From Patiria miniata (Eukaryota): a stretch of DNA of 64,000 nt. The notes under the pieces are model-generated. The model was not told where the DNA came from. It saw nothing but the letters and a program-made list of their open reading frames with translations, and did no database searches. Location: the NCBI RefSeq assembly GCF_015706575.1, contig NW_024037061.1, forward strand, positions 979,897 to 1,043,896, read 5' to 3'. Below, in pieces: positions 35,254-60,169 of the stretch. Each line of letters opens with the position of its first letter. Position 1 is the stretch's first letter. The position numbers and the translations under genes were made by a program.

Positions 35254-35935
35254 ACAGGGTGAGTCAAAAAAAGCGGAACCCAAACCCCCAAAAATATATT
35301 TCATATTTAAAAAAATATGTAGCACCAAAAATAATAATGACTGGAAAGCCAATTTCATAAAGCTACTTTTAGATGAAAAAATACTGAAATTGCTCAATCC
35401 GTTCAAAGAATATCACCATTTAAACGCAACGACCCTAAAACCTGTCTCGTCCAAAAAAGCAATTTATTGTGCGTTTTGACTGTTTGGAACAACAAAGAAA
35501 ATGACACAGAATACTTGTTTCAACAACTGTCACCACCTGTAGTGCACAATATCTTTATTAACAACCCCGGTTAGGCAAACAATATAATTTATAAAATCTA
35601 CTTTTTTTAAAAGATGGGCCTTCAAAAAGACTTTGTTGAATATTTAAACGTTTAAACTGAGGTTTTATCGCTGGTGATGTTTAAAGACAATTGTGATGCC
35701 GATTCTTGAAATCACATTTATTTTTTTGGACGAGACAGGTTTAGGGCCATTGTGTTTAAATGGTGATATTCTTTGAACGGATTGACCAATTTCAGTAATT
35801 TTTTCATCTAAAAATAGCTTATGAAATTGGCTTTCCAGTCATAATTATGTTAGGTGCTACATAGTTTTTAAAAATGAAATATAATTTTTGGGGTTTGGGT
35901 TCCGCTTTTTTTGACTCACCCTGTAGAAAACAGTG
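35254..35935. mobile_element. Foldback MITE of about 680 bp, TIR ACAGGGTGAGTCAAAAAAAGCGGAACCCAAACCCC (PARP4 intron 26, abutting exon 26)
   Basis: Long arms at 35254-35470 and 35700-35935 are reverse complements. The left terminus creates a CAGG|GTGAGT donor and the right terminus an acceptor-like ccctgtag. Confidence 0.75.
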
Positions 35936-36176
35936 CATCGGAGCAAAAGAATGTAAAAGTTGGATGAAGGATCGTTGTTGACACGTGTATTACATTGTAT
36001 TTACATGTATTTCCTAATGAATACTACAACCAATTATTTAGTGCTTTGGCTTTTCGGGATGGTACAGAGTGTAACAGATATTATTTTTGGGGGCAAGGGA
36101 GGGGATCCAGAGCCTTATGGGTTTCTGTTAATGAAGTACATTGTAAATATCAAGCATTTTCACATTTTATTTGCAG

Positions 36177-36236
36177 CATTGGTCGATTTTGCAATGAGTG
36201 ATGAAGGAGCACTAGACGACTACCTTTGTTTTAGTC
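36177..36236 (+). CDS. PARP4: PARP4 exon 27
   Basis: Acceptor cacattttatttgcag, donor GTGAGT. Phase 1 to 1. Encodes ALVDFAMSDEGALDDYLCFS. Confidence 0.6.
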
Positions 36237-36969
36237 GTGAGTATTTGGTTTCAGATATTGAATGAAATTTCTACTTCATTTTGGTCGTATTGCTAGGGTG
36301 TCAATCACTTCTCAAAAGCGGGGGGGGGGGGGGGGGGGAAATACCTTGATCAGAATTAATGCGAGTGCGAAGCCCTAACACTGGGTTTCAGGGCCCACTT
36401 AAGAGCCCCGATTTTTTTGGGTTCTAGACGCTCTGTGGTGCAATTTGAGGCAATTTCTGACCACTTTAACCAATTTTTTTTTTAGCAAAAAATTATCATT
36501 TAAACATCATTTTCGAGTTTGGAGTCATTGAATCAGCTATTCTGAGCTATAGAATCATTATATAAGCTACTATTTGTATTCAGAGGCAAACAAAGTGGGG
36601 AGGACAAACGATATGATATCCCCCACTTTTACCCCCCCCCATAAGTCTATAGAATATCCCCTTGCATAGCAAGGGTCTATGATATGCGAGCTGATTCGGC
36701 GATTAAATATGCAAAACAGTACTGCATCTTGACATTGAAATTCTGACCATTCAGTGGATGCCTACTATCAGGTCTTCAGTAACCTGCTGCTGTATTACAA
36801 AAATACGGCAGCCAAATTGACCAATCAACGGCTAAGTCCACATTTCTGATCGAAAATGATGTCAGAATTTCTAAAGTCGACTCCGCTCCGCTGGCTGCAG
36901 GGTCACATAAAATTTGGATTGCTCACATGTGTCAGACGTTGGTTATTGTACAACGGTGGATACTTAAAC

Positions 36970-37762
36970 TAGGCGGTATCTCAAAATACAGCCGTGAAAC
37001 TTCCAAGTTCTGAATTGTTTTTTGCCAGAGCGTCACATTTTCATTTTGATGTATATTTACTTGTCTTTCTTCATGCAGCAGCCTACAGTCCCACTTCGCC
37101 AGGATATTACATGGGCGAGGGTGAGTACACAGTGGAATAGACCTTGCGCAGCAGCCATCTTAATAATTCATTAGCAATGAATGCACAACGGTCCACGCAG
37201 GCACATCCCAGCAAAACAAATGCATTGCCCTCTAAGATGGTTGCCATGCAACCGGTCTATTTGAAAGCGCTTTTGCAGGTGAAGCATTTGGAGGTGGGTT
37301 TAACGCTGGCAGTGGAGTAGATTCGCTCGTACCCCCTGCCCTGCAAACAGGACGCTGGTCAGGGCTGACGTCATTTGAGCTCTCAATGGATATATTTGCA
37401 TGACCTGTGACGTAGAACGCATCTTACAAACTAGCTTCTTGTGCCCATAATATGCAAATCTGACAGAAATACAAGAATCATAAATTCCAAATTTTCAGGC
37501 CACAGAAAATTGTATGCCAAAATTTATCATTTTTTTGTTGATTTTCCCAAATGAACTCCTTAGCGACGCACGTTTCTAAAAATGCAATCAGATGAACAGA
37601 ATGTGGTGTTTACATTCGTGACTTGTCCTCATTAATGCTAAATATTCATTAATGCTCCAGGCTGCATCTCATAAATACGGCTGTGCAACTTCCAACTGGT
37701 TTTGTTCTAGATGATCACATTTTTCTGTTGATGTACTTGTCTTTCTTTGTGTAGCTCCTTCT
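36970..37762 (+). repeat. Segmental duplication of the intron-exon junction that generates paralogous PARP4 exons 28 and 29
   Basis: 36970-37078 and 37660-37754 are homologous (..atctcaaaatacagccgtgaaacttccaag..ttgatgta..cttgtctttctt..gcag/gtag). Confidence 0.7.
37079..37120 (+). CDS. PARP4: PARP4 exon 28 (symmetric phase 1-1 cassette exon; paralogous to exon 29)
   Basis: Acceptor ttgtctttcttcatgcag, donor GTGAGT. Encodes PAYSPTSPGYYMGE. The roughly 100 bp of upstream intron is duplicated in front of exon 29. Confidence 0.55.
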
Positions 37763-37973
37763 TACAGTTCTGCTTTGGATTCTTATGCTGAGGACGACGA
37801 AATGTGCATGGAATTTGAAGAAGAAGGTGAACGATTTAGAAGAGGATTTGACGCTGGCGAGGAGAAATATGCCATGATGGAAGATTGTTATGAAGCAATG
37901 GAGATACGTGCCGTAGATGCGAAATCAGATGCTGACGACTGGGAAGATGACGACGACTATGATTCTGACAGTG
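37755..37973 (+). CDS. PARP4: PARP4 exon 29 (acidic region)
   Basis: Acceptor cttgtctttctttgtgtag, donor GTGAGT. Phase 1 to 1. Encodes APSYSSALDSYAEDDEMCMEFEEEGERFRRGFDAGEEKYAMMEDCYEAMEIRAVDAKSDADDWEDDDDYDSDS. Confidence 0.65.
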
Positions 37974-38152
37974 GTGAGTTGATTATAATGGGCCGTATTC
38001 CCCAACAATTGAGGGCGCTATAACATTGCCATTTCTGGGGGCGTGAACAGACACGAATGCTTGGTTATTGACATAATTTGATTCGAACATTGCTACAAAT
38101 GAAGAAATACATTTCAACAATGTATTTTAATGTAATTGTTTTTCGTTTCCAG

Positions 38153-38218
38153 AAGTATCGGAGAATGATCTACTGGAGTTCCTGGAGGAACAGGAGAAAC
38201 TTGATGAACAGCTACTTT
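38153..38218 (+). CDS. PARP4: PARP4 exon 30
   Basis: Acceptor tgtttttcgtttccag, donor GTAAGA. Phase 1 to 1. Encodes EVSENDLLEFLEEQEKLDEQLL. Confidence 0.6.
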
Positions 38219-39035
38219 GTAAGAACAGAAATAAGGAAGTTTTTGTTTTAATTTATTTTCGTTTTAATTGGAAAAACTGACTTTCCATATCAAGAACATG
38301 ATAATTTACAGAAGCTGTTTTGAGATGTCTGCGATCTATTATTGGGTAATGGAAATTGTTACTGCAATTGACTCTTCAAAAGAGTGGACTCGTGATTCTT
38401 CCAAATTTGAAAATTGATTCTGTTCGATTCTGACGTGTAGTCGCCCAAGCTTAAAGGGAAAGTGCTCAAAATCTTTTAAGATGATGCCTAACTTGATGAA
38501 CTGTTAGCTCTTTGAACAAAAATGAAATGCTGTATATTTGGAGAAAACGGGAACAAGCATAAACACAATGTTTTGGATCTCGATTTCAATTTCAAAGTTG
38601 CCGATTCGTAGGTTGAATTGCGCCCTCTCGTGACTCAATCTGAAAATCGGCATTCAGGACACGATTCGTATTCAGCCAGTTGTTACCCATTCACGGATTC
38701 GCCCAATGCAACCCAACTACAAATTTGAACCCGCGGGGGCTGATTCACGGAAATTTCCAAAAATGTGTCGCTTGACATATCTTTGGAAATAGCCTTTTGT
38801 TGTTTTTCTTGAAAATGACAGCTTGACAGAGGGAACAATTTCACAGGGAGTTTAGTGTCATTGTCATCTTTCATTAAAGTAGCTTTCTAACTATAATTTA
38901 GCCGGTTGTTTTTTTAATCGATGCAAATGGTCGACCTTACCTTTAACTTCCTCCTATAAAAAAGAAACTTATATTCCTCTAAATTTCTCGTGCAAATTTA
39001 TTTTATTCGTTTGATTCCTCACATAGCATCGATGC

Positions 39036-39154
39036 CGCCACGCACCAGAGTCAGAGGCAAGGCTAGAGGCGGTAAGATGATGTTTGGAGAAAAGAAGGCG
39101 GAGGGATTACTTTCTCGAGATGTTGATTTGGCTCCGGATCAGTCGGTGAGAATG
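39036..39154 (+). CDS. PARP4: PARP4 exon 31
   Basis: Acceptor tttgattcctcacatag, donor TCG|GTGAGA giving phase 0, which the next exon requires. An earlier GTAAGA donor at 39081 would break phase. Encodes SSMPPRTRVRGKARGGKMMFGEKKAEGLLSRDVDLAPDQS. Confidence 0.55.
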
Positions 39155-39939
39155 TTTAAGCCCAATCCCGAAGGACACAAAATGCTCAAATTTTGTTATT
39201 CTCTCCTTGTACTATGTTTTCCTTTGCATAATCACGAGCAAACTCGGCTTTTAATTCCTATGTGTCATATCAACCCATTAGCATTGTATTACACTGCTAT
39301 GTATTCATTGAAAAAAAAAAAGCTAAGTAATTTGTCAGTCACACCACAAACCGTCGTATTGCAGTTTTTGGTGTTTTGAGAAAAAAAAACGATTTAAAGG
39401 TGACCATATTTTTGTAGGCTCATTCCTTATAACTTCTGTGTAAGAATTCACTCGGTTTTGTTTCAGCTACAAAATTAATGTTGAAACTTCATTGTACACG
39501 ATCCGTTTGCTTATTTTAAGATATTCAGTTCCCAAGATACACGTCACTCTATCAAACTTACTTTATTGTAGTTCATACAACGCGCGTAATAGTGGCCACG
39601 TGTTAGATACGATGGTTCGTGAAACGATGATTTCTCACTGTCCATGCTGGTGCTGTTTAGTTACGTCACAGCGCTATGGGAATTAGTGCGCAAAGTGGTG
39701 TATCGGGATACGACCCTTTGTGTTGAAACATTTTTTATTTTTTGGAGATACGCCGCACAGTCTAATTAGCATTCTTATTTATTTAGAACTCAGATCGGAA
39801 TAAAACTTTGTGAGGATGAGCACTCTGATGAAATAAAAACGTTAACGATAAAAACTCAACTTGGCCAAAAACAGTTTTTGTCCTGTTCCTGTTACCTTGG
39901 TTTTTTGTAAATTGCCATTCAAGCATCATTAATCCTAAC

Positions 39940-40145
39940 AGAACTCAACCCATCAAACCCCAACGGCATGTTTTGTTGGAATTTGTCAGGATGGGTACAG
40001 TACCCCTAAACTGACAGTTTTTTACATTGGGTTGGCACACCTCTAGAATCAAAGTCAGAATATGTGTGTGCAGTTTCCCATATGGTGTTGGAATTTGCCA
40101 GGATGGGTGTGGTTCCTAGTAAATCATGCTAGGGAGTCGGGGTTA
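39940..40145 (+). repeat. Interspersed repeat family C copy
   Basis: Nearly identical to 23335-23550. Confidence 0.7.
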
Positions 40146-40388
40146 AGAATGACTTTGAGCAATTTTTTATAATTCATAATCACTCTTGGACGACGACTGC
40201 GTTAAGGAGTGCATCAGAATTATAAAATCATAGATGTCATAAACAATGACAGGTAAAAAATGGACCACATAGAATGACACAAATATGACGATTTCTCCAT
40301 CATGCAACATTTGACAAGATCAAACAGCCAGAATGGAACAAATCGTTTTTAGTTAACGTTTGTTTTTGAATAATTTTCATTTTTGTAG

Positions 40389-43296
40389 GTAAAGAAGACA
40401 GAAGAGGAGTATGAAAAACCAAAAGAGAGGGCAATTATGTGGGGCAGTGCACAGCGCCATCGGCGACGTGAAATTCCAGATGAGGAATTGAAATTACAGG
40501 GCAATACTGATGGGATCACCTTTGCAGAGCCTGCTGATAGCTCACTTGCCGAAAGAAGTCCACATCGTTTTCCATCACCAGCCACAGGGTTTGCATTCTC
40601 TGCGCCTTCACCTGCGTCGCAGGCCGCTCATCCTGCACTTCAGGCCGGTGATCCCGCCGTCGCTGAGGCCTTGTCCTCAAGCTCTGTAAGCACTGGTTTC
40701 TTTACATCCACAGCACCTCGACAGGCTCGTGCCTCTAAGTTTAAATCGATGCTACCTCCTGCCAGACTTTATAAAGCAAAAGGAGTCTCACTTCAGGGAG
40801 AAGCCCCCACTGGAGGTCTGTTTGGAGGACCTTCTCTTCGCTCTGGCTTTGATGAGGGACTGACCCTAGGTCATCAACCCCCACTGGAAGCTGGTGTTCC
40901 AAAGCCTCAAACAGTAACCGGGTTTGGGGGAACTTCCGTAGCCCCTTCTTATGGTAGAGTGTTTGGTGCCCCTTTTTCTGGTGGTATGTTTGGAGGACCT
41001 TCCCTTCCCTCTGGCTTTGTTGAGGGACGGTCCCTGGGTCGTCAACCGCCACCGGAAGCTGGTATTCCAGAGCGTCAAGCAACAGTCGGGTTTGGGGGAA
41101 CTTCCCCAGCCCCTTCTTCTGGTGGACTGTTTGGAGCCCCTTTTTCTGGTGGTCTATTTGGAGGACCTTCCCTTCACTCTGGCTTTGATGAGGGACAAAC
41201 CCTAGGTCGTCAACCGCCATCGGAAGCTAGTATTCCAGAGTTTCAAACACAGTCTGGTGGTCTGTTTGGGAGACCTTCCCTTCACTCTCGCTTTGATGAG
41301 GAACGCCCCCGGGGTCTTCAAACCCGACTGAGAGCTGGTATTCGAGGACATGGTGAAACAACACTGAGCGACAATCTGTTGGAGGAAACTTCCGAATCCC
41401 CTTCGTCTGGTGGTCTGTTCGGCGAACCCGTGGTACCCCCGGTTGGTCAAAGGCCAATACCAGCATTTCGCAAGCAAATACCAACCACTAGCATGCTTAA
41501 GGGATCTCCCAAGCCCAAGTCTGATGCTGGAGTGGCACCAATTCAACCCCCATGCCGAGAAGCCAGAAAATCTGCCCCTCAAGAGCCAGCCAAGGGCGAT
41601 TTGCTCTCTAAACCCCCAGAAGAAGCAGCTATGCCTGAATCATTCAAGTCAAACTCTAAAGGAACCGTAGGATTTTCCGACAGAAAGCCACAACAAATCC
41701 GCCTTGAAGCAGGAGGAGTTTCTTCAGGGTTTAGTTTTGGAAGTGTCCCACAGCAGCAACAAACGGCTGGCGAGTTTGCGTCCACAAGAAAAAAGGATCT
41801 GTCAAAGCTACTTGGGATCTTACAGCCAGAGCAAACAGAACCCATTTTGCATGCACGGTCCATGGCATGGCCAATGCAAGCCGCTAATTCTCCTGCTAGG
41901 TTAACCGCTGCCCCGCCCCGTCGCTTTGCTGCCACTGCAGCACCATCCCCACCGCCTTCCCGTAACGCTGAGGTCAGTACATATTCTGCATCACCACCAC
42001 CTCCTCCAACTGCCTTCTTTGCGGGGATACCCCCTCCCCCACCACCCGCCCATGATGGTATAGCGCCCGGACAGCCCCCACTTCCTCTGGACATGATGAG
42101 ACGCACAATTCAAGAGGCTTTGGAGCGGTTTTCCAGTCCGTCTGGGCGGCCTCCCCCTCTGCCACATGCAGGAGCATCAAGCTTAGGGGGATTGTCTGGA
42201 AAAGCAACCCCCGCGACATTGGGTCAAGTACGACAGAGGCAAGAAATGGCTGACGATTTTGCGTCCACTAAAGTGTCTGCGTCAGCAGGACAGACCTCTG
42301 TCACCTCTGGTCTGTTTGGGAGCTTACAGTCACAGCAATCAGAAACCACATTGCATGCACAGTCATTGGCATTGCCAATGCAAGCCACCAGTCAGTCCGC
42401 TGGGTCACCCCCTCCTGTCCCGCCCTGTCCTCGTCTTCCCCTGCCCCGTCGTCCACCCCCACGGCTTCCCTTTAGACCTAGACCACGTGATTTATATGAT
42501 GAATCACCACCACCCCCTCCACCTGCCCGTTCAAGGATGCCCCCTCCCCTTCCCCCACCACTTCCTGGTAAAGAAAAAGCACCCCGACAACTAGGAAAGG
42601 GAATTCAAGAGCCTCAGCTTGGACAGCCTGCTGCTGCGCCTCTGCCACGTGCAAGACATTTTAATACAAAAAGTTACTCGGCACTACTCGGGCTTGAGAG
42701 TACGGCTGAAATACCAGATCACGCAAGGGTTTCGAGAAGCAGCAATAAAGAAAGCTCAACACCCGTGGAGAGTAACAAAGTTAGAATAAGACAGGAGCTC
42801 TCGTCAGACATGCGGAGAAACCTGAAGAAAGATGCAGCCGAAGTTCCGCCACAGTTTTTCGATACTATAATGGCGTTCGGGAGTGATGATGCTGAGGAGA
42901 CATATACATGTATGGCTGCCGATGAGAGTCATAAGCCAAGTGATGAAGGATATGCTCCTGCAAAAGTCCGGGGAAGTTTGAAGAAGAAAAAGAAGAAAGC
43001 ATTTTTTGCCGTGTCAGAGGACCGTGGTAAAGATGTTGACGAGGAGCAGATCGGTAAAGAAACTGAGGAAATCCCAAGTCTCCAAAAGGCTTCCCTGATT
43101 CAAGATGCCAGAAGCCAACCGGTTGTAGAGCTCTGCCGTATGTCTCCAAAGATGAGACCTAGAGGCATAGGGCCTAAAGTCAGTCCAAAGCCTCCACCAC
43201 TTAGCCACACTAAGGACATCGTCAGTGATTTGTTGGGTGAGATAGAGATAAGCACAGCCATCAGTGCACCACTGGGCTTTGGCACAACAGAGTCAA
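40389..43296 (+). CDS. PARP4: PARP4 giant exon 32 (about 969 codons): proline-rich, low-complexity C-terminal region with four tandem repeats of about 57 aa (GGLFGGPSL.SGF.EG..LG.QPP.EAG.P) and PPPPPP stretches
   Basis: Acceptor tcatttttgtag. Continuous ORF from 40389. The in-frame stop at 43326 is bypassed by a perfect donor TCAA|GTAAGT at 43296/43297 (phase 1), which matches the phase needed by downstream exons. Confidence 0.7.
40800..41340 (+). repeat. PARP4: Coding tandem repeat (four units of about 171 bp, 57 aa) inside PARP4 giant exon 32
   Basis: GGLFGGPSLRSGFDEGLTLGHQPPLEAGVPKPQTVTGFGGTSVAPSYGRVFGAPFS / GGMFGGPSLPSGFVEGRSLGRQPPPEAGIPERQATVGFGGTSPAPSSGGLFGAPFS / GGLFGGPSLHSGFDEGQTLGRQPPSEASIPEFQTQSGGLFGRPSLHSRFDEE.. 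Confidence 0.8.
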
Positions 43297-44078
43297 GTAA
43301 GTTACTCTTTGCTTTACCTTCTAGTTAACCCATATGGGCATATTGAGTGTTTGTGGCGAAAGGTAACAGCTTTTTTTTTTCTCCGGTCATCTGGCGTGGT
43401 CACCTGGTACAAGGGGGTAGGAGGTTTGGGGGAAGTAGGATCTTTCTGGGGGGAGTACTGTTCAAAGGGAATGATCATGGGCACTTTCAGACAATAGGTG
43501 ACGCTCTTCATGGTGCTACAATTGCCAATGTTTTGGCAACGTTAAAAAGGGCACTCCTGGGAAAAAAAGGTTCTTGAAAGGTATATTTGAAAAGAAATCT
43601 GATACACTTACTTGCTCAGAATGCTTGGCGCATTTGAACTTTGAATTCTCCAGACCAAAGACACTGTTGCTAATCGCATGATTCGGGGCAAGCTCTTGCA
43701 TAGTTACGTAAGAGACACTCAGCACCAATGCATTGTTCACACTGGGTGGGAATGGCACAAAGACACCAGATCATGCCGGAGCTGGGGGTTGCTAGCGTAA
43801 GGCTTGCCCCGAATCATCTGATATAGTAACAGTCTCTTGGGTCGGGAGAGCGCAAAGTTTAAAAGGTGCAAAGCATTGGATTAAGTCAGCATTTCAGATT
43901 TTATTCAAATTTCACTCACAAATGGCTTATTTGAGTGCATGAAGTTTCAAAGTCCAAAAGGGAAATGATAGTTTTATAACATTTTGAATTACGAGGTTCA
44001 CCTACATTCAAAGAAACACATTTCACAAAACAATGTATGCTTGTATTCAATGATGTTGTTCTGTAATTTATGAAACAG

Positions 44079-44146
44079 AATTCCGAAAGCATAATGGAGA
44101 TTTCAGTCTCGAGGCTATCATAAAACTTCTGAAACATCAGAATGAG
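44079..44146 (+). CDS. PARP4: PARP4 candidate exon 33 (KFRKHNGDFSLEAIIKLLKHQNE)
   Basis: Acceptor tttatgaaacag, donor GTAAGT. Phase 1 to 0, compatible with the giant exon upstream and the next exon. Could be an alternative cassette exon. Confidence 0.45.
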
Positions 44147-44916
44147 GTAAGTTGATGGATATTATCTTTACTTTTCATTGCTATTATTATTTTCATTTTT
44201 TTGGGGTATAAAACAGTGACGTGAATGCAAAGTTGTCGACGTAAGTTTATAGGTTGCCATAATTGCAAAAAATTTCAATTCAACAGTACAGTGTCTCACT
44301 CTTTGTGGAGGTAAAGTTACAACAATGCTGTAGTAATGTGATTTTACTGGGTGTGTTCGTTAGCTCACCTGGGTCAACACGGGTTAGCCCCGTGCCGTTC
44401 GATTAGCTCTGATGTCATTCTCGTGGCTCACCCGGGCCAGCCACCACAGACCCTGCTCGTGGAGCAGAGTCACTGGTGGAAGTACGTCACGCATGCGTTG
44501 TTCATTCCCTAGAAACGGACAAATATGGCGGCCGGACAGCGAAAATTTCATGCGGACTAAAAGTTGACTCGATTTGAAGTCTAATGACAATGATTGAGCT
44601 CATTGCGACTTTTCAGGCTGTAATTTCAACCCAACTTTTTTGCGTTTTGAAACGGACTGAAGAGCAGTAAATCTCAAACTAAGACCCAATCGGATATGGG
44701 CGTTTTGTCAGCGGCTACGCCACGGCTTAAGGCTTCACGTGAGGATCCTGATGGCCCGCGGTGCAACGTTCCATTAGCTGGGCTGTCGTGGCTGACCCGT
44801 CTACCTTCTACGCAGAGGGGGAGACTGTTCACTCAGAAAAAAATGATTTTGTTACAGTGCACTCATTGGCTGAAGAATACAGCCTAACGCCTCACTGTGA
44901 ACTCTTGTTAAAACAG

Positions 44917-45016
44917 GACGGATCATGGGAGTTGTTCATGGGCATCAAAGAGCACGTCGGAGTTAGACTGAAGCCGGTCAAGAACATGCTGAAAGAAGCT
45001 GGCGTGAATTCACTCG
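44917..45016 (+). CDS. PARP4: PARP4 candidate exon 34 (DGSWELFMGIKEHVGVRLKPVKNMLKEAGVNSL)
   Basis: Acceptor cttgttaaaacag, donor GTGAGC. Phase 0 to 1, compatible with the terminal exon. Confidence 0.45.
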
Positions 45017-45377
45017 GTGAGCAGAATACATTAGTCATCATGGGCCTTTTCTTACAACGTTTGCAAAAATTCAAAAACGGGGGAAAAGTTTTGACACAAT
45101 TTGTTCTCCCTACTATCTGACTCTGGCCACTGAGGATTATCATTGGTTATACATAACGGTACACTGGTTCTATCTCCAGGGGTAAACAAAGGACTTTTTT
45201 AAGGGTGTTTTCACGGACTCCTAATCCGTGAAAATTTAGTTAACTGTAATTTCAAGGGAAAATGGCTCTTTAACGAATGTTTAAGGGATGAAAATGTTCC
45301 ATGATTAAACTCCATCGATTCTCTGTTAATGCAAGTGTAACTTATTGCATACCTTGTTTGCTGTTGCTCTTAAACAG

Positions 45378-45622
45378 GCGAAGACGTTGCCTTGAAGATC
45401 CAGAAGCTGGTGGCCACCTATCTGGTCATCCTGTACCTGAACCACTTCTTGGCACAGTCGCCAACGATGAGCAGGCAGGAGAGAGAACGGATCACCCAGG
45501 CCGTTCTGAATGCGGAGAGGTTCGTCAGTCAGGCTGAGGCGGAGTATCCATCCCTGGCACGTCGCCTGGAGCTCGGAAGCAGCTGGGACGATGTCTGCCA
45601 GGACATCTTCAAGATGATGTAA
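45378..45622 (+). CDS. PARP4: PARP4 terminal coding exon, stop TAA at 45620-45622 (..EDVALKIQKLVATYLVILYLNHFLAQSPTMSRQERERITQAVLNAERFVSQAEAEYPSLARRLELGSSWDDVCQDIFKMM*)
   Basis: Acceptor ttgctcttaaacag with phase 1 in. Long clean ORF ending in a stop. Phase-compatible with both the giant exon and candidate exon 34. Confidence 0.7.
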
Positions 45623-52113: not shown

Positions 52114-52878
52114 TTAGGCAGAGTAGTAAACACATCGAGTGCTGACCTCCTGAAACTTCTCCGGATCATCAGCGCGATTTGCATCATTGAGCTGACACAG
52201 TTTCTGTTCTTGTTTGGTGCCCTTGATGTTGAAGGAGCGACATCCCGGTTCCTTCAGGCAGGCCGAGGCGCATCTCGAGGCGCTCTTGGTGACGAATTCT
52301 CTGATGACATGATCGACGAGGCACGAGTTTAGTTGCTGCTGCTGGGCGTTGCCTTGAGAGAAGCCCTGGTGCTGAATGTGTGCTGGTGATCGCAGGACGC
52401 ACATAGCTTTGGGTGGTTCTGTGCACGGGACGTCATTCCATCCTTGGGTTGTTGAACCAAAATAGGCGCAGTAATCACTAGAAGGGCTGGAACCATCCCT
52501 GATGCTGGGTTCTCCGGGCCTCCAGTTTGAGTACGCCTGCCCGACCTCCTGGCCCTCGCACCTCCATGCTCTATCGATGAATTTGCAACCAACCCACAAC
52601 CAACTTGGTCCTGCGTTCTTTGTCGTGGTTGCCATGAATGTATTCTCCTGTTCTGAGTGAGGAGCGGCCATCACCGCACCCATATCACGGCAACTAGCCT
52701 GGCCTTCGTCCCAGCTCGCCCCCTGGCCGGTGAGACGGTAGCAAGATGAGCCCCAAGGAATCCATAACGGCGGGCAGTATACGACAGCCGAAGATGGGGT
52801 GCAGAAATCGAAACAAAGCATCACAGCAAATGCGAAACTGACGCCTAAAACTGCGGCTTGACCTCCGTCACAGTACAT
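52114..52878 (-). CDS. Intronless secreted C-type lectin domain protein with a C-terminal PAN/apple-like domain (254 aa)
   Basis: N-terminal hydrophobic signal peptide. The CTLD core is CPPLWIPWGSSCYRL..ASW..ASC..MGAVMAAPHSEQENTF..WLWVGC...W.C...YSNWRPGEP....CAYF....WNDVPC...KAMCV. The PAN-like part is C..ASAC...C.SFN......C.L. Confidence 0.7.
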   Translation of the reverse strand: MYCDGGQAAVLGVSFAFAVMLCFDFCTPSSAVVYCPPLWIPWGSSCYRLTGQGASWDEGQASCRDMGAVMAAPHSEQENTFMATTTKNAGPSWLWVGCKFIDRAWRCEGQEVGQAYSNWRPGEPSIRDGSSPSSDYCAYFGSTTQGWNDVPCTEPPKAMCVLRSPAHIQHQGFSQGNAQQQQLNSCLVDHVIREFVTKSASRCASACLKEPGCRSFNIKGTKQEQKLCQLNDANRADDPEKFQEVSTRCVYYSA

Positions 52879-55800
52879 CTCGGAATGAAAGATGTTGGTC
52901 GTCCGAAAGAAGTCACAAAATGATTTGAATTAATATCAACGTTTGACAAAGTCGTTGTAGGCGAAATCCAGTGCAATATACGATGTTCAATATGGGCTGT
53001 GTAGTTCTGCCGCTCAATGTCTCCTTTCTCGTGACTCCAACGTCACAGGTATCGTCACTCTATATTAGTGCGCTTACCCAGCACTGAATTCAACTCATCG
53101 GGTCTGCCTATACAGCCAATTTACTGCCGATGTAATTATGTATATATATAAGGACAGGTATTTGACGTCCTCGTCCTCGAAATTTAATAAGCCTTATTAA
53201 GCCGCCCGCAGGTCGACCTTGCGACGACACAGAGCAGTCGGCGACTGACTTTTCAGGATCAAGCTACGCCTGAGCTACAACCATCGGTATAAAAGTATCG
53301 GTCGGTCGCTGATTTTCGGTTTGCGACCTGATTGTAGCTGCGACGATATTAATCCGATCGGCATCATCCGGTGTCGTATGAAAATCCGCGACCAGTATTA
53401 TCATACTAATGCATGCGCAATACTACCAGCGAGTCCATATATTTCATGAAGTCGGATATTCACGCTCATCGCATTTCACTGTGTAGCCAATCAACATGCG
53501 GCAGAAATGGTCGAATGAACAGACGTGGCCGTGGATGGCCGTGGATGGCCGCTTGATTGTTATCAACACGCACAGCGACATTTTGAAGACGCCGCATGAA
53601 CACGTGTTGCGGAATCGTTCTCGCGTCGCGGGTGACATTAACATGGTTGTGTTTATTGGTTGTGAATCACACAATTTCTCAGTTTTTGTGACCCAAATCG
53701 CAGGTCGACCCGAGGTTACCGTTAACTTAAAGGGGCAGTTCGAGAGAAAGCGCCAATTAATTTAGGCTCCAAAAATTGCAAAGGGAAATATATCGTTGAA
53801 AAAGTAGAAAATGAACGACTACACCAACACAATACCTTCATCTGACTACCAGAAGATATCTCGGTGTACAGAGTAATCGAGCCGTTGGAGTTCTAGCAGT
53901 CATTCCAATCATACATGTTTCTTTTCAATGCTTTCTTCAAACGCGTATGGGTATGGCTATGTTCGATATGGCTCGCTATAATGGATACCGTACGAGTAGA
54001 CGCAGGCCTGCGTGCGGGACCATTTTATGAAGTGCAATTTACTTGGGGAGAAAAACATACGTCGGTGAAGGGTGAAACACAATATTCAGTCGACTCTCGT
54101 TAATACAAACACTAGTAATACAAATCCTGGTTATAGCAAACATAAAGCCTTGGTCCCACGGTGCATTTATGTGTACAGTGAATAGGACCGGCACTCCACT
54201 TAATACAAAATTCTGATACAACAAACGTTTTGGCTGGGTAAGTGTGGGACCCGACACATGGCATTGAATCTCCGCAGTAAATTGGAACATTTAATGCGGC
54301 GCCAGTCTTTTGTTGACTGTCTGGCTGCATAATCGATCTACTTCTACTTCTATGCTGCTACTCGTTTACAGCCTTTTCAGCAACTTAACGAGGACTGTGG
54401 TGTCCTGTCTCAAATGGTGGACACTTGTGCTCGAAATACGTACACACAAGGCCAAAACTGTACGCCAGATGGACAGAAAATGAGTAACTACTTAGTTTTC
54501 TCCATAATTGAAAGACCTTATTGCATTTTATGGCTTTCTTGTAACAATAACTTTGGTAAAGTAAACAACCTTAAAAAATCAATTTTGTTTTAGAAATTTG
54601 GTCGAACGTTACCCCTTTAACGTATCCTCGACCGACTAGAACTACTAACGTCGATCGATGTACAATCACTCGGTTCGTTGGACTTGCCGCTACGGGAAAG
54701 CAATAAACAGTTTCTGGTCACACTCTTGGTAACAATAGTTATTATACGGTCAATAATTCAAATCAAACCATGCACGATTGACCAATCATTAAAATACACG
54801 ACAGCACGTGGTGACCTGCGCCATCATGAGCGCCGACCGCCGGTTTTTATTGTGGGTTTCCCTTATTACAGACGAAATGTTTAGGGGAGCGTGAATACAT
54901 GTATATTGTGTATCAATATTCCAAGTGACGCAAAATTAAATTAAACGCTGCCTTTTACCGAGTCGCTGGTTATACGAAACAAGACTTGGCAAGTAAAGTA
55001 ATGTTCCCAGACTTTTCATGCATGCAGTCAATGGGTCAGAATTAGCATATTCATTGCCTCTACGAGTAATCATATACGATAGCACTGCCCAGCTCCCTTC
55101 AACAGGCTTTAACCATTCTAAGTCTCAAGTAACAGTCAGATAGGTATAGGAGACTTGGACGGCCTTATGGTACTATAGTGAATAAATGAAAATCTCATGG
55201 TTGTTTTATTCTAATCTTGCCATTCTCCTCATTTTTGTGGCCACTCCTTAGCTTATTGGTGGACAGTAAAATAAATGGAAACGGCGCCACCAAGAGCCCA
55301 ATCAACCCCAAGATTTGTTCGAATCGTTTCATGTAATGACGCATTCTTTGCGCCGACGCATAGTACTAGCACACGTGCAATGCTTTAATTTGCCGAATAA
55401 AGGATGCGTCTTTTCATTGTCACGACTTCAACCACGGACTTTCGGCCGAGTATCCACCGCCCCATCGATGTGTGCTGGTTTACTAAAAGGTGAAGGAAAA
55501 AAAAGTTCAGACGGAAACCCATAGGTCGGAAAATATCGCAGGCATGCTCTTCAATAATGCATGCGCATGATGAAAGATGTAGAATCTACTGTCTGTGTTC
55601 GATTTTTTTTCTTTCGATTTTGTTCCTCTTTCTAGCAATACAAAACTTATTCAATTTTCAATGCGACGTCGACCAAAATGATCCACCCATAAGTAGTGAA
55701 CATAGTTGAAATAATTCGCCCGTGTATAAGTCACTTCTCGCAGGGTTATCTGGTTTCCGTCCCCATCAGAATCGATAATGTAGGGACCGGGAACCAGTCT

Positions 55801-58340: not shown

Positions 58341-58841
58341 CAGTTACACCACAGGAGGCCAGTCCAACCGGCACTGCTTCATTCCTGCTGGGTCTACCTT
58401 TTTGAAACCCCATACATGTTACATGTACAGAGGTCTGACAAATTCATGATTTCCGTTGTTTGTGCATCAATTTCAGTGGTCAAAGAAAGAAAACATGGTT
58501 TAATTACCCGACAAAAACGAATTCGACATTACATTTAATATTTAATTTATGAAAAATCTAAGTGCGTTTAGACCACTAAAGAATGATTCAGGTATGCGAA
58601 ACAAGTCGTTAAGTCAAGCGATATGAATTGTTCCCTGCTGGTGGTAGGCATTCATCTGGTGCTGAACTGCCGAAAGGAGATAACAGCTTAAAAGAGATAA
58701 GAAAGCCTGGTTCAGTCTTGAAGAAAAACCCGAATATAAGACCACTAGTTGGGTTTTCTTTTCAAAGAGGATTCACGGCATAAAAGTGGCATAACCGGAC
58801 TGTGTAATAGCTAAATTCTCCCACCAATAATCTCAACTCAC

Positions 58842-59011
58842 CTTGCCTCATCTTCTCGACCGTTGATTCATCTACAAAGCTCCGCAGGGCGCGCGCTGTG
58901 GCGAGCCGCACCGCCCCCGACTGGCCCGACTTGCCCCCGCCCCTCACTGTGCAATCCAGATCAAACCGGTTCAACATGCCCAAGAAATGAAACGGGAACA
59001 TGACCTGTATT
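58842..59011 (-). CDS. MRPS9: MRPS9 exon ((R)[56 protein letters not shown])
   Basis: Matches human MRPS9 [44 protein letters not shown]..WMRQ. Acceptor tgtgtacag, chosen so that the spacing to the YF motif equals the human spacing. Donor GTGAGT. Phase 2 to 1. Confidence 0.8.
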
Positions 59012-59716
59012 CTGTACACAAATTAATAACACTTTGAAAATTACTAATTATTTGGAAAAATATTAACAAGATTTTGGTTAACAAAATTTTAATCCTTGAC
59101 AATTGAGCCGTTGGAGTACTAGTCTTGATTAAAACTCTAGTGCTGGTCTTGATGGCACATATTGAACACCATACTTTAGATTTATACCTAATTTATAGCG
59201 ATTTGTGATAAATGCTACATGACTATAACATTACTGCACCTGTTTTGCCTCCATTTACCAGTTTACAAACTTTTCATTAACATGTTTCCGAATTGTTACA
59301 AACAATGTTTGTTAAGTATTTAATTTATTTTGTTAAAATTTGGTAGTTATTTTTTATGGGGAAACTTAGGGGGCTTATTTTGGGTCATGTTTTGGGGGAC
59401 AGACATATACAAAAACATACGCATGCGCATCGATTGAAACAAAATCGGTGTTCCGAACACTGTCGGCAAGAGTGTATTTTATGACGACAGCATTTGGTCA
59501 ATTAGTATTAGTCAATTATTTTTGGTCAATTATTATTGGTCAATTTGCGGGGACAGACAGACAGACAGACACACAGACAGACCAACCAACTGACCGACCA
59601 CCAAGTGACTATAGGCAGGCCCTCTGGGACCAGCAAAATTCTATATTCATATAGGAATAAATTTAAAAAATAATTCCTTTCAGTACATTAAAAGAAAAAG
59701 AAACACCCTTGATATA

Positions 59717-59868
59717 CCTGTGTTGTACTACTGAGAAGTAGTCGAGAAAGCTATGTCCGTTGACGGTAACCTGCCCATTTCCCTGGTCCCTAACAATCAC
59801 GTTGGCTTCAGCCTCCTTCCGTGTGCCGTGCCCTTTAGCGAAGGCTCGGCCCGTCTCGTCAAATTGGA
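59717..59868 (-). CDS. MRPS9: MRPS9 exon (uS9 core: IQFDETGRAFAKGHGTRKEAEANVIVRDQGNGQVTVNGHSFLDYFSVVQH)
   Basis: Matches the uS9 signature G.G.RK.A.A.V....G.G.I.VNG.....YF and human MRPS9 (..GKISVNGVDYLLYFPVTQD). Acceptor tag|ATC, donor GTATAT. Phase 0 to 2. Confidence 0.75.
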
Positions 59869-60169
59869 TCTAATGCACATGAAATAAAAGTAACAAATTG
59901 AAGTCTGACCTGTTAATCACCTGCCATCTCTAAATAGATTCTAGGATCACAAAGTTCTATTTTGTTTTCACCATTTTACTCCAATGGAAAGGATGTGACT
60001 TTGTGTTCAATTTTGTAAACGCTTAGCAAATATTTTAAACGTTTAGCAATTCACAAAGGCTGACATGTGATCGACATGATAAAGCAACTATGATTTGGCA
60101 TAATATATAGTGGGCAGTCATTGAAAAAGTCAAACCTAACTACGCAAAGAAACTGAGCAATAACTAAAT

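Follow-up and report, generated by a model that had tools for sequence, protein, structure and literature searches.

Partial tandem duplication of an exon in a PARP4-like gene of Patiria miniata, with a 42-nt mini-exon candidate in the upstream copy

A PARP4-type gene in the analysed window (the whole stretch of 64,000 nucleotides from Patiria miniata contig NW_024037061.1) contains a local tandem duplication. The copied stretch comprises the splice acceptor, a minimum of ~96-108 nt of intron directly before it and 110 nt or more from the beginning of the 219-nt exon that follows. The downstream copy (37659-37973, copy B) is an intact exon. The upstream copy (from 36971, copy A) is now unable to act as a full-length exon; what it offers is a candidate exon of 42 nt. 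Judging from the sequence, we lean slightly towards the view that this is a mini-exon, constitutive or cassette, produced by duplication and later truncation and not used in mutual exclusion with the 219-nt exon.

The PARP4-like gene and its linker exons

The duplication lies in a multi-exon eukaryotic gene on the plus strand, extending from ~18 kb to 45.6 kb of the window. When open segments were compared with Pfam, BRCT, PARP catalytic (E=1e-30), VIT (E=2e-38) and VWA_3 (E=2e-22) domains were matched in this order on the plus strand between 18.2 and 31.1 kb. With the region from vWA to linker as query, the top database matches were PARP4-like proteins of Lingula, Dysidea, Anneissia and Tegillarca (52-60% identity). 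Domain order and PARP4-like matches together thus confirm the gene as PARP4, as it had been called in the first-pass annotation of this DNA.

Neighbouring exons were modelled from open reading frames, tblastn matches of orthologues and enumeration of splice sites (Table 1). For the 42-nt and 219-nt exons, the numbers 28 and 29 are plausible according to exon count downstream of 24 kb. Direct reading places the AG of the 42-nt exon at 37077-78 and its GTGAGT at 37121-26, those of the 219-nt exon at 37753-54 and 37974-79, respectively. Each is open when one base is taken from the exon before it. Lengths, 1-1 phases and GTGAGT donors of both exons are therefore as initially described. The same applies to the proposal that inclusion or skipping is neutral to the frame, since the modelled phases across 36177-39145 are consistent with the 42-nt exon either in or out.

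Four consecutive exons of 60, 42, 219 and 66 nt (36177-38218) are all of phase 1-1, so that any of them can be skipped without frame break, and the acidic linker looks modular. Because the flanking exons (36177-36236 and 38153-38218) have this phase as well, symmetry is a property of the whole linker and is not a signature of the duplicated pair.

Homologues of the C-terminal exons (40389-45619) were looked for and none was detectable. Part of the same PARP4-like gene is a single open exon of 979 codons (40389-43325), which contains several poly-proline tracts and a 168-bp coding repeat in 2.7 copies (40810-41258). Units of this repeat, such as SGGLFGGPSLHSGFDEGQTLGRQPP, are reminiscent of GLFG repeats. 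The 963-aa ORF of this exon had no homologue in a search of 5.8 billion proteins.

Table 1. Modelled exons and duplicated segments in positions 33,445 to 40,389 of the window
Feature	Position	Strand	Phase	Remarks
Exon	33445-33567	+	0-0	
Exon	34641-34799	+	0-0	
Exon	35127-35214	+	0-1	
Exon, 60 nt	36177-36236	+	1-1	Precedes candidate mini-exon; GTGAGT donor; outside duplication
Copy A, duplicated intron end	36971-37078	+		Aligns to 37659-37754; blastn E=5e-11
Candidate mini-exon, 42 nt	37079-37120	+	1-1	
Second colinear block, exon-interior relic	37277-37317	+		Matches 37825-37864 of 219-nt exon
Copy B, duplicated intron end and acceptor of 219-nt exon	37659-37754	+		Aligns to copy A
Intact exon, 219 nt	37755-37973	+	1-1	
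Exon, 66 nt	38153-38218	+	1-1	Follows 219-nt exon; outside detectable duplication
Exon	39027-39145	+	1-0	
Exon	from 40389 onward	+	starts in phase 0	

Extent of the duplication and state of the two copies

Local alignment of 36971-37096 with 37659-37775 yields a score of 43 (z=20), reached by none of 300 shuffles (mean 11.8, sd 1.6, maximum 19.5). The duplication was recovered by repeat search, MAFFT and blastn (E=5e-11). In its intron part, 78 of 109 columns match (72%), which rises to ~82% without the 14 gap columns. Tandem Repeats Finder missed the duplication, because its period is over 500 and identity is low. Blastn found the duplicated segment nowhere else on either strand of the 64-kb window, which identifies it as a local duplication as opposed to a dispersed repeat. 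The initial observation that ~100 bp of intron and acceptor are duplicated is thereby substantiated. About 18% of aligned intron positions differ between the copies, corresponding to a Jukes-Cantor distance of ~0.2, and the duplication is therefore old.

Recognisable in copy A are TTGATG as a likely branch-point region, the polypyrimidine tract TACTTGTCTTTCTT and an acceptor of sequence CAGCAG. The similarity had been considered to be limited to intron and acceptor, which proves too narrow: the alignment crosses the AG and continues ~18 nt into both exons, and a second colinear block, located in the intron after the 42-nt exon, matches the interior of the 219-nt exon (37277-37317 vs 37825-37864). 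In this block 32 of 41 positions match (78%; blastn E=0.005; z=5.3, reached by none of 300 shuffles). Its reading frame is homologous to that of copy B, the peptide GEAFGGGFNAGSG in copy A corresponding to GERFRRGFDAGEE in copy B. From the position of its counterpart in the 219-nt exon, 110 nt or more of that exon must have been duplicated. Taken together, the similarity is adjacent, on the same strand and beyond chance, it includes a splice boundary as well as exon sequence, and it has no third copy in 64 kb, as is the case in exon duplications. Comparison of the tails (37318-37658 vs 37865-38400) gave no signal above shuffles, and neither of the exons 36177-36236 and 38153-38218 displays similarity above shuffles to copy A or copy B.

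Exon homology of copy A ends 18 nt in. The two homologous blocks are separated by ~180 nt in copy A versus 49 nt in copy B, and in copy A they lie in different frames. Read-through past the donor of the 42-nt exon hits a TAG at 37138-37140. At DNA level, identity between the 42-nt exon and the first part of the 219-nt exon is 49%, as compared with 72% and 78% in the flanking blocks. Since homology is lost at 18 nt, the exons are paralogous only in the acceptor and the first six codons; the proposed paralogy of the pair holds for this part and does not extend to the remainder. A second copy A exon starting at 37279 was also considered, as splicing of 37120 to 37279 restores the homologous frame. 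It was rejected because its donors are unsupported: the only phase-1 donors after 37279 and before the stop at 37401 are GAG/GTGGGT, which would give a 15-nt exon, and the poor GCA/GTGGAG.

Copy B is taken as parent-like because its frame is continuous across both blocks. The 219-nt exon encodes a 73-residue acidic segment of the linker, and HMMER search of 1.84 billion representative proteins with its peptide retrieved no homologue at E up to 0.001. This is consistent with a linker that evolves fast and, judging by its composition, is probably disordered. A resemblance of the linker to the Tegillarca PARP4-like protein (YSSDSVYDD...), noticed by eye, was dropped, as the best alignment between them is not significant (E=1.7). 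Given that the linker does not align to this protein, orthologues are unable to show which copy is ancestral.

The 42-nt candidate exon

The 42-nt exon encodes (P)AYSPTSPGYYMGE(A). Like a skippable exon, it has a length divisible by three, an open frame and usable splice sites. To score these sites, position weight matrices were built from 22 introns that we modelled ourselves in this gene, with the paralogous acceptor excluded from the acceptor matrix. At 12.4 bits, the acceptor of the 42-nt exon exceeds each of the 22 modelled ones (leave-one-out median 5.3), and the donor of this exon, with 8.8 bits, ranks 4th to 5th of 22 (median 6.7). In 12.8 kb of modelled intron, this is the sole symmetric acceptor-donor pair with acceptor of at least 9 and donor of at least 8 bits; for comparison, the whole minus strand (64 kb) contains three such pairs.

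The acceptor of copy A is strong because it was copied from a working acceptor. As its strength is inherited, the donor is the informative part. Donors of such strength occur about once per 3-4 kb, and for the 19 in-frame positions ahead of the first stop codon, 0.005-0.007 of them are expected. So rare a strong in-frame donor favours retention of the copy as an exon by means of a new donor, in an argument that is made after the fact, is inflated by the exon-like look which drove selection of this stretch, and relies on small matrices. An open stretch of 42 nt is found by chance about half the time, and very short exons are sometimes poorly recognised. Since its splice sites match or beat the 22 other modelled sites, the 42-nt exon is probably spliced in; we consider its presence in at least some mRNAs somewhat more probable than its absence. 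The CAGCAG at 37076-37081 is a tandem (NAGNAG) acceptor, whose second AG scores 5.9 bits versus 12.4 for the first. Use of the second AG would move the exon start to 37082, an in-frame shift of 3 nt with loss of one codon (Ala).

Exon peptides around the duplication gave no match in a word-indexed protein search. Exact 30-mer and degenerate-pattern scans detected no related sequence in metagenome contigs, nor did an exact-product look-up of contigs retrieve one. Rfam and tRNA scans of the region returned nothing, and the region has no minus-strand ORFs of note.

These features suggest the following history. An old local tandem duplication copied the intron end together with half or more of the acidic-linker exon, counted from its start. 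Copy B retained the original role, and copy A lost its interior by indel or replacement. A GTGAGT, in frame 42 nt beyond the acceptor and ahead of the first stop, would now bound a frame-neutral mini-exon. Branch region, polypyrimidine tract and AG appear to have survived in copy A at first-rate quality; with acceptor signals retained and a consensus donor at hand, the spliceosome should recognise 37079-37120 as a short exon. Inclusion would add 14 residues (AYSPTSPGYYMGE and a junction codon) to the disordered linker and leave the rest of the protein unchanged; skipping would likewise be frame-neutral. From an exon that is recognisable and frame-neutral, behaviour of a constitutive or cassette mini-exon is to be expected.

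The 42-nt exon encodes YSPTSP (37084-37101), the sole occurrence of this peptide in six-frame translation of the window. YSPTSP is identical to the heptad core of the RNA polymerase II CTD and is also a motif for proline-directed phosphorylation. The acidic parent reads SYSSALDSY where the mini-exon reads AYSPTSPGY. If expressed, the exon would provide the PARP4-like protein with 14 residues bearing an S-P/T-S-P motif. One might imagine a regulated micro-exon that acquired a new function after the duplication, its inclusion toggling a phospho-regulated docking site in the linker of the vault PARP. We regard this as a long shot, and the YSPTSP match is treated as coincidence pending evidence.

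Alternative explanations and related systems

Chance similarity, or a dispersed repeat (SINE or MITE) that inserted twice instead of a local duplication, might be considered in a window that is repeat-rich and has a MITE-like element just 1 kb upstream. However, a score 20 sd above shuffles and two copies only, with no third on either strand of 64 kb, make this explanation almost certainly wrong. [quoted passage not shown] If they were mutually exclusive, exactly one of the 42-nt and 219-nt exons would be present in every transcript. The exons are indeed adjacent, of common origin and in the same phase. Furthermore, the duplicated intronic element upstream of each could in principle act as a selector pair, as in a model of competing structures that result when one arm of an intronic stem is duplicated (PMC9013439). 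Nevertheless, a standard screen for mutually exclusive exons relied on sequence similarity, conserved frame and length difference of at most 60 nt (PMC5740500), and while the phase agrees here (1-1 in both), the lengths differ by 177 nt and homology at protein level is confined to six codons. A mechanism of exclusivity is lacking too. With both exons included the frame is kept, so that exclusivity would not be imposed by nonsense-mediated decay, and nothing else imposes it; the intervening intron of 634 nt causes no steric block, and both exons use GT-AG sites. Inverted matches that could serve as docking/selector pairing in 36237-38152 are short, AT-rich and none of them is above background, and shuffles fold as well as the RNA that surrounds the first acceptor (36770-37135; z=-0.36). 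The classic architecture is therefore not borne out, and mutually exclusive use of the pair appears very improbable.

Much more weight is due to the explanation that copy A is a pseudo-exon in decay which enters mRNA never or to a negligible extent, the GTGAGT 42 nt on being a coincidence. Most of copy A has decayed, its homology being gone after 18 nt, its frame disrupted and a stop present at 37138. The coding part is the most diverged (49% identity), which is expected if the ancestral peptide was not preserved, and studies of tandem exon duplications report numerous unannotated intronic copies of which only some are expressed (PMC9013439). On the other hand, acceptor and donor both score among the best modelled for this gene, chance would place only ~0.005 donors of such strength at the in-frame positions available ahead of the first stop, and a strong acceptor-donor pair left unused within an intron would need active silencing. 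In view of the evidence on both sides, a dead duplicate is a real possibility, if short of an even chance, and the frame-neutral mini-exon bounded by a new donor is the explanation we prefer.

Tandem exon duplications were reportedly surveyed by Letunic, Copley and Bork in 2002. A related process is pseudo-exon activation, or exonization, in which a new splice site in non-functional sequence makes a short exon. The candidate described here resembles it in having a new donor past a competent acceptor, in being short and frame-neutral, and in lying in a disordered region of the protein. In contrast to exonization, the acceptor comes from the duplicated boundary of a genuine exon and not from a transposable element or random intron. 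Clusters of mutually exclusive exons, such as the human set of Hatje et al. 2017 (PMC5740500), Dscam and ATE1, are similar in adjacency, phase and duplicated upstream intronic element. Dscam and ATE1, however, use competing RNA structures, and none was found here; unlike in such clusters, the exons are of 42 and 219 nt, their joint inclusion is compatible with the frame and the intervening intron is long.

The closest likeness is to tandem exon duplications with decayed intronic copies (Ivanov and Pervouchine 2022, PMC9013439). There as here, an exon is copied head to tail with flanking intron, the copy is found in the would-be intron and its expression is uncertain from case to case. The present duplication differs in that only the acceptor and six codons are alignable, and in that the copy is cut to 42 nt by a donor without counterpart in the parent exon. 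It is a further case of this well-described class, tandem exon duplication with a partly decayed intronic copy, and is no surprise to specialists. It illustrates neatly that, after a partial tandem duplication of an exon, a short candidate exon without effect on the frame may be left behind in a disordered, fast-evolving linker; it has little meaning beyond this gene and opens no long-standing question. Annotators should nonetheless be cautious, as gene predictors may arbitrarily keep or drop 37079-37120.

Several other elements were noticed in the window. The intron between exons 35127-35214 and 36177-36236 harbours the MITE-like element (35253-35925), with long inverted arms pairing 35253-35313 with 35865-35925 (95%) and 35376-35439 with 35740-35803 (92%). 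Its left arm contains a perfect decoy donor, AGG/GTGAGT at 35259, which is in frame with the upstream exon and could mislead gene predictors. A run of ~22 G at 36320-36341 is followed ~290 nt downstream by a complementary C run (36627-36640); the two may be the ends of another small inserted element upstream of the duplication. SINE-like intron repeats are located at ~19.3 kb, 23.5-23.9 kb and 25.2-25.6 kb, and also at 20.58 kb and 46.3 kb, and yield similar spurious ORF fragments, e.g. GSNPAAGHMLCPWASHFTSTCL and GWIAQLVxHxNGNxEVA. On the minus strand downstream of the PARP4-like gene, 52117-52929 and 58765-59869 contain long open segments resembling other genes. One of these segments has 271 codons and is cysteine- and tryptophan-rich; others resemble, by eye only, a member of the ribosomal protein S9 family. 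Finally, an intronic 90-bp unit occurs twice in tandem at 33635-33810, with 95% identity between the units, and is far younger than the exon duplication.
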